A stretch of 64,000 nt of DNA. It comes from Candidatus Adlerbacteria bacterium. GTDB taxonomy: Bacteria > Patescibacteriota > Minisyncoccia > Phycocordibacterales > SBAW01. Positions 5,732 through 62,187 of the stretch are shown here, in pieces. The position numbers and the translations under genes are program-made. The notes beneath the pieces are model-generated. The model saw nothing but the letters and a program-made list of their open reading frames with translations. It was not told where the DNA came from and made no database searches. Where the stretch lies: NCBI GenBank assembly GCA_037135035.1, contig JBAXLB010000001.1:23102-87101 (forward strand), read 5' to 3'. Positions within the stretch are counted from its first letter, which is position 1; every line of letters begins with the position of its first letter.

Positions 5732-6364
5732 CTAAAGTATTAATCTCTCGGCTACCTCAAGGCAAGCTTTAAAACGTAGATCTACTCCAAAAATAAATTT
5801 CTCCGGTGCCGGCATGTCTGCAAGGGTGAACCATTGTATATCACGAGCTTCTTGGCCTCCATGCAGAGTCTCACCAAGATGGACCTCTCCAATAAGCTCA
5901 ACAGGGAAATAAGAAGAAATCGCGTGTTTAGTAGATTCTGGAAGGAATACCTTCGAATGTATCCAATTCTCTTCCTTTTCTCGAGGAGCAAATTGCCCTA
6001 GAATTACCGGTCTTTCAGAATCAACAAGTAATTTAATTTCACAGCCAAGATCGGTGCGAGCATGACGACGCAATGCATCTTCTATACTTTCAGGCGGATG
6101 GCTTTCCGGTCGACGATTAATGCGTCCGCCAACAGAACATAATTTCCCCGCTAATTTACCGGTATTGCGCACGATTGCCATCGCTTCAAGTTCTCCAGAT
6201 CTGTTACGGCGAACAGGAACCATATCAACGCACATGATAGGCACTATTCTTTCAATAAGAGTATAGAGGGCTTTTGAAATTATAACTCCCTCCGAGGTAA
6301 GTAAATCAGTTCGATCCAGTAGTTCTTGCGCCAACTCCTCAGTAGATTTTTCTTTCAAATACAT
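5732..6364 (-). CDS. Nudix-like hydrolase, possibly GDP-mannose mannosyl hydrolase-like
   Basis: Degenerate Nudix-box-like segment '[29 protein letters not shown]'. Its position next to gmd-fcl mirrors wcaH/gmm in colanic-acid loci. Confidence 0.3.
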
Positions 6365-55964: not shown

Positions 55965-56174
55965 ATGAAGACAGAAACGCACCCAACCTATTTTGCTGAG
56001 GCAAAAGTTACCTGCGCATGCGGACGGGCCTTTACTGTGGGCTCAACGCAGGAAAAACTCTCTGTCGAAATTTGCAGCGCATGCCACCCGTTCTATACCG
56101 GTAACGAAAAGATCTTGGATGCCGCAGGTCGCGTAGAAAAATTCAGAGCTCGTCGCGCAGCCGCAAAAAAGTAG
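55965..56174 (+). CDS. rpmE: 50S ribosomal protein bL31
   Basis: '[15 protein letters not shown]...[10 protein letters not shown]' zinc-ribbon L31 signature. Confidence 0.9.
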
Positions 56175-57146
56175 ATGGCTACAGAGGCGGACTTGCTCCT
56201 CTATAAAGAAAACCCAAAGACCGCATATTTTGCTGCGGAGCTCGAACGCTTGGCTGTAGAAGAAAAGGAGCTTAAAGAAATGGCAACGGGCGACTTGGGA
56301 GAACTTGCCAAGGACGACCTTGCACGCATTGAAGAACAAAAAGCAGCCTTGCTCGCGGAGATAGAGAAAATTTTAGATAAAGAAAAACTCGAGGAAGAGT
56401 TCCCCAACGAAGCGATTTTGGAAATCCGCGCAGGCGTAGGTGGGGAAGAGGCTGCATTGTTTGCTGAAGAGCTTTCCCACATGTATCGCGCATATGCCGA
56501 CCAGTGTGGCTGGCAGGTGCGTGTGCTTTCGGAGTCTAAGACCGACCTTGGGGGATATAAAGAAGTTGTGCTTGAAGTAAAAGGCCTCGAAGTATACAAA
56601 CGCCTCCGGTTCGAAACTGGTGTGCACCGCGTCCAACGAATACCTGCAACAGAAAAGTCCGGTCGCGTCCATACGTCGACTGCGTCGGTTGCTATTTTGC
56701 CGATACGCAAAAAACACACTATAGAAATTAACCCTGGCGATATCGAAATGGAATTTTCGCGTGCGGGGGGTGCGGGCGGACAGAACGTCAACAAAGTGGA
56801 AACTGCGGTGCGCATTGTGCACAAACCAACAGGCTTGGAAGCGCGTTCGCAGTCGGAGAGAAACCAGTTGGGTAACCGCGAAAAGGCGATGGCCGTGCTC
56901 TTGGCAAAACTTGAACAGCACGAAGAAGAAAAGGCTCGGGCGAAGCTTTCGGCTGACCGGAAGCTACAAATTGGTACTGGCGACAGGTCGGAAAAAGTGC
57001 GCACCTACAACGTGCTCCAAGACCGTATCACCGACCACCGCATTAAAGAGAGTTGGCACAACTTACCGCTTATTTTTGCCGGTAACATTAACCCCATGCT
57101 CGACGCCCTGGCCGCGGCCCAGACCGGGGTGGAGGCGGTTGCATAA
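56175..57146 (+). CDS. prfA: Peptide chain release factor 1
   Basis: 'PAT' tripeptide ('[13 protein letters not shown]') and a 'GGQ' motif ('[19 protein letters not shown]'). Confidence 0.9.
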
Positions 57147-57181
57147 CCAGTGTGGCCGTGCTATTCTAGCCCGTATCTTAT

Positions 57182-57916
57182 ATGGAAAAAAACGAATCAG
57201 TTATAGACAAGTTGTTTTCGCTCGGAGCCCATTTTGGCTACGCGCCGTCACGCCGCCACCCGTCTGTTGCACCGTATATTTTCGGTAGCAAAGGAGGTAC
57301 TGAATTGTTTGACCTCGAACGCACATCGGTGTGTTTTACCGACGCGCTCGAATATATAAAAACACTCGCAGCAGCGCGTAAAACGGTACTTTTTGTCGGC
57401 AGCAAAGCTGAGGCTCGCGAAGCCTTGAAGCGCGCCGCAGAACGCTTAAACCAGCCGTACGTTGCGTCACGTTGGATAGGCGGCACACTCACCAACTTTT
57501 CTGAAATCAAAAAGCGCCTTAACCTTTTGACCGAACAAACCGACCAGCGCGAAAAGGGCGAATTGCAGAAGTTTACTAAACACGAACGTTTGCTTATTGA
57601 CCGCAATATCACCGACCTGGAAGCAATGTTTGGAGGCTTGAAGGGCATGAACAAACTCCCCGACGCTTTGTTTATTGTCGACCCACGTCAGGAAAGTGGC
57701 GCAGTTGCAGAGGCGCGCCAACTAAACATCCCAATTGTTTCGTTGCTTAACTCCGACTGCGATAAGAGCCTTATCACATACCCAATTCCTGCAAACGACG
57801 CGTCTCTCCAGGTAGTAGCGTACGTGCTCGACGAAGTTGCAAAAACATACGAAAGCAATATGGGCGCAGTGCCCACCGCAGACTCTCTTGCGGCAGCACC
57901 TGCAGTAGCAGCGTAG
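57182..57916 (+). CDS. rpsB: 30S ribosomal protein S2
   Basis: 'LFSLGAHFGYAPSRRHPSVAPYIFGSKGGTELFDLERT' S2 pattern. Confidence 0.9.
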   Translation: MEKNESVIDKLFSLGAHFGYAPSRRHPSVAPYIFGSKGGTELFDLERTSVCFTDALEYIKTLAAARKTVLFVGSKAEAREALKRAAERLNQPYVASRWIGGTLTNFSEIKKRLNLLTEQTDQREKGELQKFTKHERLLIDRNITDLEAMFGGLKGMNKLPDALFIVDPRQESGAVAEARQLNIPIVSLLNSDCDKSLITYPIPANDASLQVVAYVLDEVAKTYESNMGAVPTADSLAAAPAVAA

Positions 57917-57942
57917 TTCTTTAGCCCTAACATAAAATATAT

Positions 57943-58527
57943 ATGGCAGTCAGTGCAGATGTAGTAAAAGAGCTCCGCGACAAAACAGGCATTTCTGTCA
58001 TGGAATGCAAAAAGGCGCTTGAAGAAGCAGGTGGTGACATGGACAAAGCTATTGTTGTCCTTTCACGCCGCAGTGCAGAAATTGCACGCAAAAAAGGAGA
58101 CCGTTCGTTTGGTGCAGGTACTGTTGCTTCATATATCCACAACACCGGCCAGGTTGGTGCTATGGTTATGCTTTCCTGCGAGACTGACTTTGTCTCAAAG
58201 AACGAAGATTTTATAAAACTCTGCCGCGATATTGCGATGCATGCGGCTGCAACAAAGCCCGAATATATTGCGCGCGAAGACGTGGGCGAAGCTGCGCTTA
58301 AAGAGCTTGAAACAATCTTTTTGCCAGACGTTAAAGACAAGCCAGAAAATTTGCGCGAGCAAATTCTTGCCGGCAAAGTGCAGTCGCGTTTGAAAGAAAT
58401 AGTGCTGCTCGAGCAGTCGTTTATCAAAGACGACAGCAAGACTGTGGCACAGCTCTTGCTCGATGCTGCACAGAAGTTTGGCGAACGTGTCGAGGTAAGC
58501 AAGCTCGGTTGTTTTTCGGTTAAATAG
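57943..58527 (+). CDS. tsf: Elongation factor Ts (short form)
   Basis: 'VKELRDKTGISVMECKKALEEAGGDMDKAIVVL' UBA-like N-terminus. Gene order rpsB-tsf. Confidence 0.9.
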   Translation: MAVSADVVKELRDKTGISVMECKKALEEAGGDMDKAIVVLSRRSAEIARKKGDRSFGAGTVASYIHNTGQVGAMVMLSCETDFVSKNEDFIKLCRDIAMHAAATKPEYIAREDVGEAALKELETIFLPDVKDKPENLREQILAGKVQSRLKEIVLLEQSFIKDDSKTVAQLLLDAAQKFGERVEVSKLGCFSVK

Positions 58528-58545
58528 TACTATATACTGGGTTCT

Positions 58546-58959
58546 ATGGTGCTCTTTTTCACCACAACACTGTTTGTGTCGATAGTCGGGCTCTTGTCGC
58601 TCTTGGCGGTTAAACGCTGGGAGCTAAAGACAGGGAACGTGCTATTCTTGGCACGAGTGCGGCCCACGGTGGGCACCATGGCGCATGTATTTTTGCTCTG
58701 GGTAGAGCGCGTACTCCCGGCGCTTGCGGCGCACCACGGGCAGAGAACAGTTGCTGTAGTGCGTGCGTGGACACACAGGACAATTGCACGCGGGGTGCTT
58801 GCGGCCGAGCGTGGGCTCGAGCATACGCTCGACACAATACGCGGTGCAACCGACCACCCAAAAAGCAGCAAGGAAGCGTCGGCATTTTTACGCGAGGTAG
58901 CCGAGCATAAGCGCAGGTTACTGCGCCGGAAGCCCAGAGAAAAAAAGATTAAAGAATAG
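58546..58959 (+). CDS. Hypothetical membrane-anchored protein with basic C-terminus
   Basis: N-terminal TM 'FFTTTLFVSIVGLLSLLAV'. No recognised domain. Confidence 0.3.
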   Translation: MVLFFTTTLFVSIVGLLSLLAVKRWELKTGNVLFLARVRPTVGTMAHVFLLWVERVLPALAAHHGQRTVAVVRAWTHRTIARGVLAAERGLEHTLDTIRGATDHPKSSKEASAFLREVAEHKRRLLRRKPREKKIKE

Positions 58960-58965
58960 TAGCAT

Positions 58966-59028
58966 GTGCCGCCTTAGGGCCGACGTTTCAGTCGGCCTCC
59001 CGACCTCCTACGGAGCGTCGGGACTCAG
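58966..59028 (+). repeat. Structured repeat A: 'GTGCCGCCTTAG' + two GC hairpins + 'CTCAG' (mimics the tRNA 5' end with an insertion)
   Basis: It shares both 5'/3' borders and both hairpin stems (ccgac...gtcgg) with repeat B at 59304-59365. Its borders equal the first 15 nt of the adjacent tRNA (GCCGCCTTAG|CTCAG). Confidence 0.6.
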
Positions 59029-59035
59029 AAAAAAA

Positions 59036-59299
59036 ATGGCTTGGGTATATATACTCAAAACGAAATCAGGGAAGTATTACGTCGGTAGTACTACTGACAT
59101 GGATGAGCGTTTCAAACATCACATGGGAGGGCACACTCCTTCAACAAAAAGTCTGGGTCCGGAAAAAGTATTATTGAAACAGGAATATAAAACGCTCAAA
59201 GAAGCTCGTTTTGTTGAGGGCAAAATCAAAAACCTGAAACGAAGAGATTACATTGAAAAGATACTGAAAGACGGCTATATTAAGATAGCGTTACGGTAA
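59036..59299 (+). CDS. GIY-YIG nuclease-family protein (small, UPF0213/YhbQ-like)
   Basis: 'WVYILKTKSGKYYVGSTTDMDERFKHH' matches the GIY-x10-YVG motif with a downstream Arg/His. 87 aa. Confidence 0.7.
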   Translation: MAWVYILKTKSGKYYVGSTTDMDERFKHHMGGHTPSTKSLGPEKVLLKQEYKTLKEARFVEGKIKNLKRRDYIEKILKDGYIKIALR

Positions 59300-59303
59300 A
59301 ACA

Positions 59304-59365
59304 GTGCCGCCTTAGTCCCGACGAGCAAGTGCTGTCGGGACCCCGACTGAAACGTCGGGGCTCAG
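59304..59365 (+). repeat. Structured repeat B (direct-repeat partner of A, with hairpin order and orientation swapped)
   Basis: 'GTGCCGCCTTAG-tcccgac..gtcggga-ccccgacTGAAACgtcgggg-CTCAG'. The TGAAAC loop is the reverse complement of the GTTTCA loop in repeat A. Confidence 0.6.
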
Positions 59366-59380
59366 TTATAATAACAATTC

Positions 59381-59456
59381 GCCGCCTTAGCTCAGTTGGT
59401 AGAGCAACTCTTTTGTAAAGAGAAGGTCCCCAGTTCAAATCTGGGAGGCGGCTCCA
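59381..59456 (+). tRNA. tRNA-Thr (anticodon UGU), CCA encoded
   Basis: Manual fold: 7-bp acceptor stem GCCGCCT/AGGCGGC, D-arm GCTC..GAGC, anticodon loop TTTGTAA, 5-nt variable loop, T-arm CCCAG-TTCAAAT-CTGGG, discriminator U, CCA. Confidence 0.8.
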
Positions 59457-59461
59457 AAAAG

Positions 59462-60145
59462 TTAGTTTGAAGCTTTTGTAGAAGTTGCGGCGGTTGAGGT
59501 TGCGAGGGTTTTTAACTCTGGGATAAGCTTTTCGACTTCGTCGAGAGTTTTAAAGCCATACACTGGTGCGCGATTGTTAACTATAAACGCAGGCAGCGGG
59601 CCTTGTAGTTTTTGTAATGCAATAAGTGTCTTTACTGCCGAGAGGTCGAGGTTGTAGTCGAACGAATATACGCGGAGCCCCGGGTATGTTTCCCGCAAGT
59701 AGGAAAGCTCTTGCCCCATGCGGCCGCAGTCTTTGCAGTCACCTCTGTTAGAGTAAAAGTACAGCACAAAGACTGGCTTTGAATGGCATTTTTCTGAAAT
59801 TTGCTGCAGCAAAAGATAGTCTTTAATTTCAAGTAGGGAATACTGCTCTTTTAAATTGATAACCTCTTTGTTGGTAGCTCCCAAGTTTTCTTCTGCGACA
59901 GAAAGGCGGCTTGCGAGAGAGTTAAGCTCATCGGAAAGCACCGGGTTTTCGGCAATTATTTTGCAGTCGAGATGCCCGAGCAGTTCAAACTGTGTTTCGC
60001 TCGAAAGGATGTCGATGGAAATACTTTCTTCCGTTGCGCGGATGTCCGCAATGCGCTGTGTGTCGATCCGTTGTGCGATATAAAATGCGGTACCAAAAAT
60101 CGCCCCAGTGATGACAAATGCGAGGATATATTTCTGCCAGTGCAT
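59462..60145 (-). CDS. Membrane-anchored thioredoxin-like protein (CxxC)
   Basis: N-terminal TM and a 'GDCKDCGRMGQEL' CxxC motif in a ~100-aa C-terminal thioredoxin-like region. Tentative. Confidence 0.35.
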   Translation of the reverse strand: MHWQKYILAFVITGAIFGTAFYIAQRIDTQRIADIRATEESISIDILSSETQFELLGHLDCKIIAENPVLSDELNSLASRLSVAEENLGATNKEVINLKEQYSLLEIKDYLLLQQISEKCHSKPVFVLYFYSNRGDCKDCGRMGQELSYLRETYPGLRVYSFDYNLDLSAVKTLIALQKLQGPLPAFIVNNRAPVYGFKTLDEVEKLIPELKTLATSTAATSTKASN

Positions 60146-60164
60146 AAAAAATAAATGTTTAAAT

Positions 60165-61400
60165 TTAAACCAACCAACCGCGCTCCTGTGCCCACACAGT
60201 GTCCCACAGTGCGCGGGCTAGCCACAAAGGTGCGATGAAGCCAAACAGCGCAAAGTAGGAGATAAAAGCTTTTAGCGGAAGGCGGGTTTGTGCGATGCGT
60301 TGTCCAAGTACAACGGCCATAAGCGTCATACCAAGTGTTGCAATGACAAGGAAGCTAAGCATGCTGGTGTTAATGTAAAACCACTGTAAGGAATTTGTGG
60401 AGACGTGGGGCGGCACGTGCGTCGCCAACATATCCAACACATGTGTGGAGACGAATTCTGTAATACGCCATACGGTGTAGGATGCAGTATAGAGGCCACC
60501 TAAAAAAGCAACGAGCCCAAAGGGGAGCACGAGTACGCCGAAGTGTCCATATTTCCGGTTGAAGTACATATATGAATAGTCGCGGGAATTCTCTAAAAAA
60601 CCACGCGACCAACGGGTGCGCTGGCGAACAAGTGCCCCGACCGTTGGGGGGACATTGGTATACACAAGTGCTGTGTGTACGTTGGTGATTTTGAGTCCAT
60701 TGGCATGCATGCGGAACGCCATCTCCATATCTTCAGTATGATGGGCTTTGCGGAAGAGGCCTATTTTTTCAAACACACTGCGGCGGTAAATGGAAAATGG
60801 ACCCGGCAAAACAGAAATCGCACTCAGGTTGTCAAACATTTTTTTGTAAAATATGCCGAAGGTATACTCGACCGACTGCATAAGTTCGAGCAGGTTGCGC
60901 GGGTGGTTAACCTTCATCGCAGGTGCAACAGCCATCGCTTCGGGGTCCCGTTCAAATTCTTTGGCGACTTCAAGCAATGCGTCTTTTGCTACAAACGAGT
61001 CGGCGTCGAGGCATCCAACAAGGTCGCTTTCTGAGCGGTTAATGGCGTAGTTGAGCGCGGCATATTTACTACCCTCGTTCTTTTTTTGATAGATCTTAAT
61101 TTGTGGGTTGTGTGCAAAAATTTGCGCTGCCTCATACGTGTTGTCGGTCGAACCGTCGTCGACTATAACAATAGACAGTTTGTCCTTTGGGTAGTCCATT
61201 GCAAGGAGCGACTCCACAGTACCTGCAAGTGTCTTTGCTTTGTTCCAGCAGGGGATAATGATGGTCGTACTTGGGTAGTAATTCGGCAAAGTAGCAGTCT
61301 TCTGTTGGGGGCGTTTTTCCAAGAATGAAATAAGCAAAAAAACCTCGAAATAGAGGCCTACAAACAGGAATATATATATGCCAAATGACCCAATGTCCAT
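60165..61400 (-). CDS. Processive family-2 glycosyltransferase (cellulose/chitin/hyaluronan-synthase-like, membrane-embedded)
   Basis: GT2 'IIIPCWNKAKT...VIVDDGSTDNT' (DxD) and 'VRQRTRWSRG' (QxxRW) motifs. N- and C-terminal TM helices. The ORF track extends to 61625. Confidence 0.75.
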   Translation of the reverse strand: MDIGSFGIYIFLFVGLYFEVFLLISFLEKRPQQKTATLPNYYPSTTIIIPCWNKAKTLAGTVESLLAMDYPKDKLSIVIVDDGSTDNTYEAAQIFAHNPQIKIYQKKNEGSKYAALNYAINRSESDLVGCLDADSFVAKDALLEVAKEFERDPEAMAVAPAMKVNHPRNLLELMQSVEYTFGIFYKKMFDNLSAISVLPGPFSIYRRSVFEKIGLFRKAHHTEDMEMAFRMHANGLKITNVHTALVYTNVPPTVGALVRQRTRWSRGFLENSRDYSYMYFNRKYGHFGVLVLPFGLVAFLGGLYTASYTVWRITEFVSTHVLDMLATHVPPHVSTNSLQWFYINTSMLSFLVIATLGMTLMAVVLGQRIAQTRLPLKAFISYFALFGFIAPLWLARALWDTVWAQERGWLV

Positions 61401-61419
61401 TTGACGATTATACCGTATA

Positions 61420-62187
61420 ATGCTCTTTATGGAAACTGAAGCGCGCCTGCCCGCCGACCGGCGGGGACACCTGCACCCAATAAGCTCGCTCATACGCGAA
61501 GCCAATAACATCTTCTCCGAGATGGGTTTTACCTTTGCCGAAGGACCGCTTGTGGAAAAGGAATGGTACAACTTTGACGCGCTTAACGTACCCAAGGACC
61601 ACCCAGCCCGCGATATGCAGGACACCTTTTTTATTAAGGATGAAAAAGAGATGGTCTTGCGTACACATTGTTCGCCAGTGCAGGTGCGTTATATAGAAGA
61701 GCAGTTGAAAAAAAATATCCAGCCGCCGTATCGTGTAATAGTTCCTGGGCCTGTATTCCGCAACGAAGCAACTGACATGACGCATGAAGCAGAGTTTTTT
61801 CAAATGGAATGTTTGGTTGTTGGCGAAGATGTTACACTCGCACATCTAAAAGGAACACTGGAAAAATATTTTACAGAAGTATTTAAGGGGGTCAGTGTTG
61901 AAATTCGTTTCCGTCCGAGCTTTTTTCCTTTTACGGAGCCCAGTGTTGAGGTGGATGTGCGCCTGATTGGTGAAAAAGCTCCCGAAAAACTGCGTGGCCG
62001 CTGGATAGAGATGATGGGCGCTGGTATGGTGCACCCGAACGTTATTAAAAATGCAGGCCTCGACCCACAGAAATATCGTGGGTTTGCATTCGGCATGGGT
62101 CTCGACCGTTTGGCTATTTTGCGTTGGGCAATAGACGACATCCGCCTGATGCATTCGGCTGACCTGCGGTTTGTAAATCAGTTTTAA
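61420..62187 (+). CDS. pheS: Phenylalanine--tRNA ligase alpha subunit (catalytic core only, short form)
   Basis: Class II aaRS motifs 'FRNEATDMTHEAEFFQMECLVVG' and 'GAGMVHPNV...GFAFGMGLDRLAIL'. Confidence 0.85.
   Translation: MLFMETEARLPADRRGHLHPISSLIREANNIFSEMGFTFAEGPLVEKEWYNFDALNVPKDHPARDMQDTFFIKDEKEMVLRTHCSPVQVRYIEEQLKKNIQPPYRVIVPGPVFRNEATDMTHEAEFFQMECLVVGEDVTLAHLKGTLEKYFTEVFKGVSVEIRFRPSFFPFTEPSVEVDVRLIGEKAPEKLRGRWIEMMGAGMVHPNVIKNAGLDPQKYRGFAFGMGLDRLAILRWAIDDIRLMHSADLRFVNQF

Follow-up and report, generated by a model that had tools for sequence, protein, structure and literature searches.

A GIY-YIG nuclease gene and double-hairpin modules inserted in the tRNA-Thr gene of a Candidatus Adlerbacteria bacterium, with related arrangements at other tRNA genes of Patescibacteria

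The only tRNA gene in a 64-kb stretch of DNA from a Candidatus Adlerbacteria bacterium (Candidate Phyla Radiation (CPR)/Patescibacteria), hereafter the window, is a tRNA-Thr(UGU) gene (ARAGORN and Rfam) that is interrupted near its 5' end by a small GIY-YIG nuclease gene and two GC-rich double-hairpin modules. The simplest description of this locus is a 413-bp insertion (58978-59390) after nucleotide G10 of the tRNA gene. It is formed by two head-to-tail units, each of which consists of a double hairpin, nucleotides (nt) 11-15 of the tRNA, a spacer with or without the open reading frame (ORF), and a new copy of nt 1-10. The last of these copies abuts the original nt 11-76, and therefore a complete tRNA gene is rebuilt downstream; the original 5' end stays upstream, separated by a hairpin module. 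The GIY-YIG ORF is the sole coding content of the insertion, in which no tyrosine or serine recombinase is found. The explanation that we favour, with a probability of roughly 0.55, is a selfish cassette of the homing endonuclease type, in which the nuclease would cut the D-arm of the tRNA gene, repair would copy the occupied allele, the hairpin would block the left-over stump, and re-cutting would give rise to tandem units.

Empty and occupied tRNA-Thr sites

The empty state of the site is seen among 80 orthologous loci that were fetched from metagenomes with p227, a conserved 227-aa ORF used as host marker. The gene order tsf - p137 - tRNA-Thr(UGU) - p227 is kept wherever the contig covers the region. 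In the syntenic relatives, the tRNA lies directly after p137, a conserved hypothetical ORF, and starts intact 7-59 nt past its stop codon, with neither a GIY-YIG gene nor a hairpin module. Most of them have an uninterrupted tRNA of the same sequence, and in three loci (L091, L101 and L111) its identity to the window tRNA-Thr is 76/76 nt, so the comparison with empty sites foreseen in the initial annotation of the stretch came out in its favour, and the window carries the derived, 413-bp insertion. None of the 80 loci has a GIY-YIG gene of the window type at the tRNA-Thr site.

Occupied relatives with the same synteny were also found. L164 (ORF 82% identical), L169 (75%) and L172 have one unit. 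The intact tRNA starts 3-5 nt past the ORF in L164 and L169 and, considering the three loci together, lies within a few nt of it or overlaps it. L163 (ORF 80% identical) has both units and a homologous unit-2 spacer, TTCAATAAACATTC, and its second hairpin module is direct, not flipped as in the window. Moreover, the tRNA remnant that follows the hairpin is longer in some relatives, spanning nt 11-24 in L169 and nt 11-32 in L170. Occupied and empty loci intermingle in the clustering by host marker.

The features of the locus are the following (positions in the window; + is the forward strand).

58546..58959, +: p137, conserved 137-aa hypothetical ORF (ORF list), with homologs directly upstream of tRNA-Thr(UGU) in syntenic relatives
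58968..58977, +: tRNA-Thr nt 1-10 (GCCGCCTTAG), copy 1, identical to nt 1-10 of the tRNA; the original 5' end left in place
58978..59023, +: double-hairpin module A (fold -33.2 kcal/mol, z = -4.0)
58978-58997: module A hairpin 1, GGCCGAC GTTTCA GTCGGCC
58998-59023: module A hairpin 2, TCCCGAC..GTCGGGA
59024..59028, +: CTCAG remnant after module A, matching tRNA nt 11-15
59029..59035, +: A7 spacer ahead of the start codon (5' untranslated region), from the sequence
59036..59299, +: gene of the 87-aa single-domain GIY-YIG nuclease, UPF0213/Slx1-like (Pfam PF01541, PDB profile search, AlphaFold2 (AF2) model)
59300..59305, +: trailer AACAGT between the stop codon and fragment copy 2, from the sequence
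59306..59315, +: tRNA-Thr nt 1-10, copy 2, an exact repeat; 3' end of insertion unit 1
59316..59360, +: double-hairpin module B, flipped, reverse complement of the core of module A (-30.2 kcal/mol, z = -3.5)
59316-59340: module B, first hairpin, TCCCGAC..GTCGGGA
59341-59360: module B, second hairpin, CCCCGAC TGAAAC GTCGGGG
59361..59365, +: second CTCAG remnant, tRNA nt 11-15, from the sequence
59366..59380, +: 15-nt spacer TTATAATAACAATTC of the ORF-less unit 2, holding the hexamer TATAAT 9 nt upstream of tRNA position +1
59381..59456, +: intact regenerated tRNA-Thr(UGU) (ARAGORN; Rfam tRNA, 68.1 bits), with nt 1-10 from unit 2 and nt 11-76 original
59462..60145, -: p227, conserved 227-aa ORF (ORF list), convergent with the tRNA; host marker in the empty-site analysis

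Unit 1 (58978-59315) thus comprises module A, CTCAG, A7, the GIY-YIG ORF, AACAGT and GCCGCCTTAG, and unit 2 (59316-59390) comprises the flipped module B, CTCAG, the 15-nt spacer and GCCGCCTTAG, without an ORF. The spacer before the ORF differs in length and sequence among relatives, and trailers comparable to AACAGT are TTAGT in L169 and ATACGT in L163. In the usual form of the family, the nt 1-10 that follow the ORF are fused straight to nt 11-76.

The initial annotation had described this region as two elements, A (58966-59028) and B (59304-59365), each formed by GTGCCGCCTTAG, two GC-rich CCGAC..GTCGG hairpins and CTCAG. The ORF begins 7 nt past element A and ends 4 nt short of element B, and the tRNA, which starts with GCCGCCTTAG|CTCAG, lies 15 nt past B. 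Its coordinates, sequences, spacings of ORF and tRNA, and exchange and inversion of the hairpins all agree with the window. The elements had been regarded as mimics of the tRNA 5' end; they are instead real tRNA gene fragments, copy 1 being located where the tRNA of the relatives begins. Since this copy is already where the native tRNA would start, 8 nt past the stop codon of p137, the spacer of unit 2 could be ruled out as the native 5' flank of the tRNA.

Regarding the repeats, GCCGCCTTAG occurs three times in the window, all of them inside 423 bp. The pattern CCGAC(N4-14)GTCGG occurs seven times versus 0.4 expected, a number that was reached in no shuffle. Four of these matches are in A and B, and the remaining three are lone single hairpins that lack tRNA-like flanks. 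None of 200 shuffled sequences folded as stably as A or B. The cores of A and B (45-46 bp) are reverse complements of each other, and the flanks, GTGCCGCCTTAG and CTCAG, remain direct. The hairpin common to both elements shows two compensatory base-pair changes (GGCCGAC..GTCGGCC vs CCCCGAC..GTCGGGG).

The TATAAT of the unit-2 spacer has A/T-rich counterparts at other loci with two units (spacers of L031, L037 and L043). To judge by sequence, the rebuilt tRNA may have a promoter of its own in this spacer. The hexamer was not called as a full promoter in a consensus promoter scan, and the scan for promoters and terminators was near the shuffled expectation (2 promoter-like matches vs 1.0 and 4 terminator-like vs 1.4). 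An Rfam scan of positions 56000-62000 (E <= 1) returned the tRNA and a chance ALIL match only, with no ribozyme, riboswitch or intron. The ALIL pseudoknot match (56222-56309; 17.2 bits vs a gathering threshold of 50, E = 0.37) is in the coding region of RF1 (prfA) and is almost certainly due to chance.

Concerning the upstream neighbour, p137 has no match in Pfam or NCBIfam. Its G+C content (0.60-0.62 vs ~0.48 nearby) is unusually high, it has a hydrophobic N-terminal stretch, and it adjoins tsf in relatives, a conserved position. Its 3' part has one further CCGAC..GTCGG pair (58848-58884) that looks like chance.

A single-domain GIY-YIG protein beside tRNA genes

The 87-aa product matches the Pfam GIY-YIG family (PF01541) with E = 1e-11 and 45.4 bits (cut-off 22.6). 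In a profile search of the PDB, the best match was the UPF0213 protein 1zg2 (E = 1e-9), followed by Slx1. The AF2 model (predicted local distance difference test score, pLDDT, of 86.8) presents a three-stranded sheet with helices, and Foldseek against the PDB placed UPF0213 1zg2 (BH0048) at the top, with a probability of 1.00, and then Slx1, UvrC-N and I-TevI. These results confirm the GIY-YIG fold that the ORF had initially been assigned. Y5, Y15, G17, R25, H29 and E61 are invariant in 32 homologs, and by analogy Y5, Y15, R25, H29 and E61 would be residues of the catalytic type. The protein consists of the catalytic domain alone plus a conserved C-terminal helix, KR(K/R)DYIEK. Purifying selection on the ORF is strong (dN/dS ~0.1 or lower, pN about 0.1), with saturated synonymous sites.

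The ORF recorded by gene callers is longer (111 aa, from the ATG at 58964) and runs through element A. The family alignment places the true start at 59036. An exact-sequence look-up of the 87-aa product gave no match, since gene callers record the 111-aa form. An identical protein is on record for a metagenome-assembled genome of Candidatus Adlerbacteria. A profile search of 1.8 billion proteins retrieved 507 clusters (50% identity) at E <= 1e-10, and many of these family members have N-terminal extensions of 20-60 aa, which are probably gene calls running through the hairpins, like the 111-aa call.

A search with an alignment of the homologs gave 80 loci from metagenome-assembled genomes of Patescibacteria. 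In 87 loci, a tRNA gene of the same strand follows immediately 3' of the ORF, and these tRNAs represent 21 anticodon classes and 11 amino acids. The two genes are in close contact: in 33 of the 87 loci the ORF stop codon is the TAG at tRNA nt 8-10, and in 30 the gap between ORF and tRNA ranges from -9 to +6 nt. Furthermore, a 5' fragment of the adjoining tRNA, split by the double hairpin, is found upstream of the ATG in 80/88 loci. This fragment is often exact or nearly exact over the first 10-15 nt of the tRNA, and upstream fragments are also often decayed relative to it. The distance from the end of the module to the ATG is usually 6-25 nt. In the commonest form, a single hairpin-split fragment lies upstream, and the ORF directly adjoins the intact tRNA. 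The bracketing of the ORF by two elements, which the initial annotation had emphasized, is real in the window, but it does not hold as a rule of the family: it is seen in about 6-9 of 88 loci, at Thr, Asn and Arg tRNAs. The proposal that a tRNA-targeting mobile or homing element left its footprint here, with a duplicated target, is supported by the empty and occupied sites, the fold of the protein and the diversity of anticodons.

The relatedness of the ORFs follows the type of tRNA, the nearest neighbour of an ORF being at the same anticodon in 30/81 cases vs 5.7 expected. ORFs ~70-75% identical to each other are also found at different tRNAs, namely Thr(UGU), Thr(GGU), Arg(UCU) and Val(UAC). 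Several loci have more complex arrangements. L077 is a tandem unit with two identical copies of the ORF and, between them, tRNA nt 1-19, a hairpin and nt 20-26. In L012, L049 and L080, the hairpin lies within a full-length tRNA copy after the ORF, and a second, intact tRNA copy is upstream. In L170 (100-720) and L171 (560-1145), the native tRNA-Thr is split into nt 1-10, 11-32, 18-22, 23-53 and 54-76 with three hairpin modules. The tRNA-Thr(UGU) that works in these two loci follows the ORF and differs in its acceptor stem and T-arm, which are of the type of another lineage; this looks like a replacement of the tRNA gene.

A second GIY-YIG subfamily was found at tRNA-Ser genes. Its proteins are UPF0213-like, with a KYKGG..F C-terminus, and ~33% identical to the window protein. 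It is represented by L065 (400-1005), L015 (minus strand, 25-431), L190 (1100-1545) and L194 (1110-1620). The layout is a tRNA 5' fragment, two hairpins, the ORF and the intact tRNA, and the hairpin cores are CCGCC/GGCGG and CCCGC/GCGGG. In L190 the tRNA is split in the anticodon loop, after nt 36, and L194 has an ORF-less unit whose spacer repeats the 5' untranslated region of the ORF. Since these UPF0213-like proteins share the same tRNA architecture, the link with tRNA genes may exceed the window family, and the different cores suggest cognate pairs of protein and hairpin.

Two further loci are worth mentioning. In L017 (435-690), the tRNA-Ile(UAU) copy that follows the ORF is interrupted near position 47 by ~165 nt that hold another, intact tRNA-Ile(UAU), and the 3' part of the interrupted copy is further downstream. 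In L141 (reverse complement, ~5960-6240), a distant GIY-YIG-like ORF (29% identical) lies between pheS and pheT, bracketed by a perfect ~13-bp inverted repeat (CCCGTTAGAGAT / ATCTCTAACGGG), with no tRNA involved.

The double-hairpin module and its junctions

The module divides the tRNA sequence precisely: its flanks are consecutive tRNA nucleotides that rejoin to the exact tRNA, and no target-site duplication was found at the junctions, either in the window (..TAG | CTCAG..) or in the junction set of the family. The insertion sites are preceded by YAR (Y, pyrimidine; R, purine), with TAG in 46, CAA in 22, CAG in 15 and TAA in 5 of 104 sites, and the first position after the module is a pyrimidine in 95/103. 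The main positions within the tRNA are 10|11 and 15|16, with 18|19, 22|23 and 53|54 being rarer. The tRNA copies that bear a hairpin are mostly truncated fragments, and the full-length ones (L012, L049 and L080) are accompanied by an intact copy.

The module is an inverted pair of a single hairpin unit, in which loop 1 starts with G in 71/72 cases and loop 2 ends with C in 61/72. At the two stem positions outside the conserved CCGAC/GTCGG core, pairing is of the Watson-Crick type in 86% of 213 hairpins vs the 33-37% expected if the positions were independent, and the four pair types occur. The structure of the hairpin is therefore under selection. As for the strand, stem mismatches of the G.T and A.C types are equally frequent (18 vs 20), so there is no sign of selection specific to the RNA strand.

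With respect to orientation, the outer pair TC..GA is most often at hairpin 2 in the family, as in module A, and it is at hairpin 1 in 4/72 modules, as in module B. Random orientation of the module was rejected due to this strong bias of the outer base-pair types, and flips like that of module B are therefore rare. The order of the loop lengths looks random (35 vs 30).

The modules accompany the nuclease gene. In 819 kb of fetched DNA, 91 of the 94 double-hairpin modules are within 200 nt of a GIY-YIG ORF, and no module was detected in the 80 loci fetched with p227 or elsewhere in the window. Over these fetched loci and the window, as distinct from complete genomes, this distribution speaks against the alternative that had been considered at the outset, a dispersed family of tRNA-derived miniature inverted-repeat transposable elements (MITE) or repetitive extragenic palindromic (REP) sequences.

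Two structural models of the module were discarded. A T-shaped arrangement like the inverted terminal repeat of adeno-associated virus, with a closing stem made by the tRNA flanks, fits tRNA-Thr (CTTAG/CTCAG, 4/5 pairs) and fails in other cases such as tRNA-Asn. A tRNA intron (group I, group II or bulge-helix-bulge) was rejected because there is no Rfam match (E <= 1) beyond the tRNA and because the interrupted copies are mostly truncated or, where full length, accompanied by an intact one.

Candidate mechanisms and comparison with known systems

For the selfish cassette of the homing type, we infer what the nuclease targets, how repair proceeds and what the hairpin does as follows. The GIY-YIG protein would cut the conserved D-arm of tRNA genes at YAR|Y, that is, at U8-A9-G10|C11 or C13-A14-R15|Y16, a specificity suggested by the junction rule of the insertions. 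The break would be repaired by copying the occupied allele: the 3' end that finishes in tRNA nt 1-x would pair with the hairpin-split fragment of the donor, synthesis would pass through the hairpin, the spacer, the ORF and the nt 1-x of the donor, and the new strand would re-anneal through the tRNA body. The hairpin module would destroy the cut site within the left-over fragment. The rebuilt tRNA could be cut again, and repair from its own upstream fragment would produce tandem units. The loss of one ORF from such a tandem would yield the bracketed form of the window, with unit 2 as a remnant. This reading is supported by the existence of the intermediates that it predicts, namely the tandem of L077, the ORF-less unit of L194 and the full-length interrupted copies of L012, L049 and L080. 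The tandem units of L077 and unit 2 of the window suggest that re-cutting happens, and mobility is indicated by the interleaving of occupied and empty loci and by the presence of similar ORFs at different tRNAs. L170 and L171 would further represent cases in which the flanking tRNA was transferred.

Several observations weigh against the homing-type cassette. Since the presumed cut site persists in the rebuilt tRNA, the occupied allele would lack the immunity of classical homing. The separate DNA-binding domain of I-TevI and the Seg enzymes is missing from the 87-aa protein. The modules of L170 are exactly at 22|23 and 53|54, with flanks that are not homologous to the D-arm site, and copying by homology does not explain them. 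Moreover, copies at the same locus combine saturated synonymous sites with a strongly conserved protein; a purely selfish homing gene would not usually show this, and it fits a function useful to the host. Finally, no close relative was found on viral contigs in IMG/VR, where the best one is 36% identical, and a phage origin was rejected on this basis.

The missing domain, the retained site and the hairpins at non-homologous sites favour the main rival explanation, which we consider less likely as a whole: the double hairpin itself would be mobile, as a small, two-fold-symmetric analogue of REPIN or of the ends of IS200/IS605. Its cognate enzyme, a structure-specific nuclease or a transposase, would be the GIY-YIG protein, inserting it 3' of YAR in the DNA of tRNA genes. 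The tRNA duplications would then be the survivable outcomes of hits on an essential gene. The precise insertion 3' of a 3-nt motif without target-site duplication, the use of five or more tRNA positions (10|11, 15|16, 18|19, 22|23 and 53|54), some of them without flanking homology, and the inverted-pair symmetry of the module with its strongly covarying stems are in agreement with this. The same applies to the strict linkage of modules to the ORF, the occurrence of both orientations, the pairing of different cores with a different protein in the tRNA-Ser subfamily, and the presence among the closest solved relatives of Slx1, a structure-specific nuclease. However, just 3/94 modules are away from an ORF, without the dispersal of a REPIN or MITE, their orientation is strongly biased, and we know of no GIY-YIG DNA transposase. 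Moreover, hairpin mobility alone leaves unexplained the fresh, exact copy of nt 1-x that ends each unit and the ORF that always abuts position +1 of the tRNA. Tentatively, and with less confidence than we place in the homing-type cassette, the GIY-YIG protein and its cognate double hairpin might be regarded as an unrecognised class of mobile DNA, driven by a GIY-YIG enzyme in place of a HUH, DDE or recombinase enzyme. This class would have at least two protein subfamilies with different hairpin cores, and its module would be installed at YAR|Y in tRNA-gene DNA. By rebuilding the tRNA 5' end it would survive in the essential and often single-copy tRNA genes of minimal genomes, and it could replace the resident tRNA gene with a foreign one.

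A domesticated arrangement seems unlikely. Here a host GIY-YIG gene would be co-transcribed with the tRNA, and the hairpins and the tRNA fragment would constitute a structured 5' leader with a role in stability, processing or autoregulation. The strong purifying selection with saturated synonymous sites, the constant juxtaposition of ORF and tRNA with the shared stop codon in 33/87 loci, the short distance from module to ATG, and the maintenance of unit 2 with its spacer in L163 as well as in the window would fit such a leader. However, syntenic relatives lack the entire block and have a normal tRNA, the family extends over 21 anticodon classes with closely related ORFs at different tRNAs, upstream fragments are often decayed, and modules also occur in dead downstream tRNA remnants that no ORF follows. 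The parity of G.T and A.C mismatches gives no sign of selection specific to the RNA strand, and no Rfam family was matched. An origin by local tandem duplication at the 5' end of the tRNA together with fortuitous GC hairpins, or by mis-assembly, is in practice already refuted. Slippage can generate short repeats near tRNA genes and metagenome assemblies can be chimeric, but no specific result supports this origin. Two other, independent assemblies contain the locus with every base identical, and it is therefore not an assembly artefact; the same architecture exists in about 80 other genomes, and the counts of repeats and hairpins are far above the shuffled expectation.

If the homing-type cassette is correct, it would be a widespread strategy of selfish nuclease genes for settling in essential tRNA genes, by insertion in the D-arm, rebuilding of the 5' end and capping of the stump with a hairpin. 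It would also explain the tRNA-gene fragments and the N-terminally extended GIY-YIG calls of CPR/Patescibacteria, and it would provide a mechanism for the duplication or replacement of tRNA genes, hence for horizontal tRNA transfer, in very small genomes. The 87-aa nuclease, which may be specific for the DNA of tRNA genes or for defined hairpins, might serve as a tool. In addition, where the stop codon of the nuclease lies within tRNA nt 8-10, as is often the case, translation and tRNA 5' processing would be unusually coupled.

Among known systems, SegB is a free-standing GIY-YIG homing endonuclease of T4-like phages whose gene is in the T4 tRNA gene cluster (PMC2330249). Like the Seg genes, the gene described here stands alone between genes and near tRNA genes, its locus is occupied or empty among related genomes, and flanking tRNA sequence may be carried along, in this case in L170 and L171 only. 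It differs from them in its host, a bacterial chromosome with no close viral relatives, in the insertion inside a tRNA gene whose 5' end is rebuilt, and in the conserved double-hairpin module. The presumed target sequence of the cassette is regenerated, not destroyed; the upstream copy is disrupted by the hairpin, and the same D-arm is intact downstream. Seg proteins and I-TevI are also much larger and have a DNA-binding domain, unlike the 87-aa protein, which has none. By profile and fold, the closest proteins are those of UPF0213/COG2827 (YhbQ, BH0048 and EF2693) and of the Slx1 type, which are of similar size and single-domain. The C-terminal KR(K/R)DYIEK helix is particular to the window family, and to our knowledge no link of UPF0213 or Slx1-type proteins with tRNA genes or hairpin modules has been described.

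As far as the hairpins are concerned, the arrangement resembles, by description, the REP/REPIN-RAYT and IS200/IS605 systems: short GC-rich hairpins in inverted pairs, insertion 3' of a short motif without target-site duplication, and a single nuclease gene flanked by cognate hairpins. Unlike in those systems, the enzyme is GIY-YIG, not HUH/Y1, and is the sole associated protein, the modules are nearly all beside the ORF (91/94), the targets are tRNA genes, and the units carry a rebuilt piece of the target. The lack of a target-site duplication around the copies also distinguishes them from a MITE. In the collaborative homing of the cyanophage psbA intron and F-CphI, a free-standing endonuclease reportedly acts together with a separate intervening sequence. 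Here too the nuclease gene is outside a short insertion that interrupts its presumed target, but the module is not a self-splicing intron, as judged by the lack of an Rfam match, and it is in a dead gene fragment instead of a working gene. Elements with tyrosine integrases likewise insert in tRNA genes and keep their function through a replacement copy of the displaced segment. In these, the replaced segment is usually the 3' part of the gene, whereas here it is the 5' one (nt 1-10 or 1-15), no integrase is present, and the units measure 75-340 bp versus kilobases.

None of the systems compared joins a single-domain GIY-YIG gene, a cognate double hairpin and the regeneration of a tRNA 5' end. 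This arrangement was not described in the full-text literature searched, including papers on introns and gene exchange in Patescibacteria (PMC13011429, PMC12455944). The element, present in hundreds of related CPR lineages, is thus apparently undescribed, and it could constitute a new class if the GIY-YIG enzyme mobilises the hairpin.

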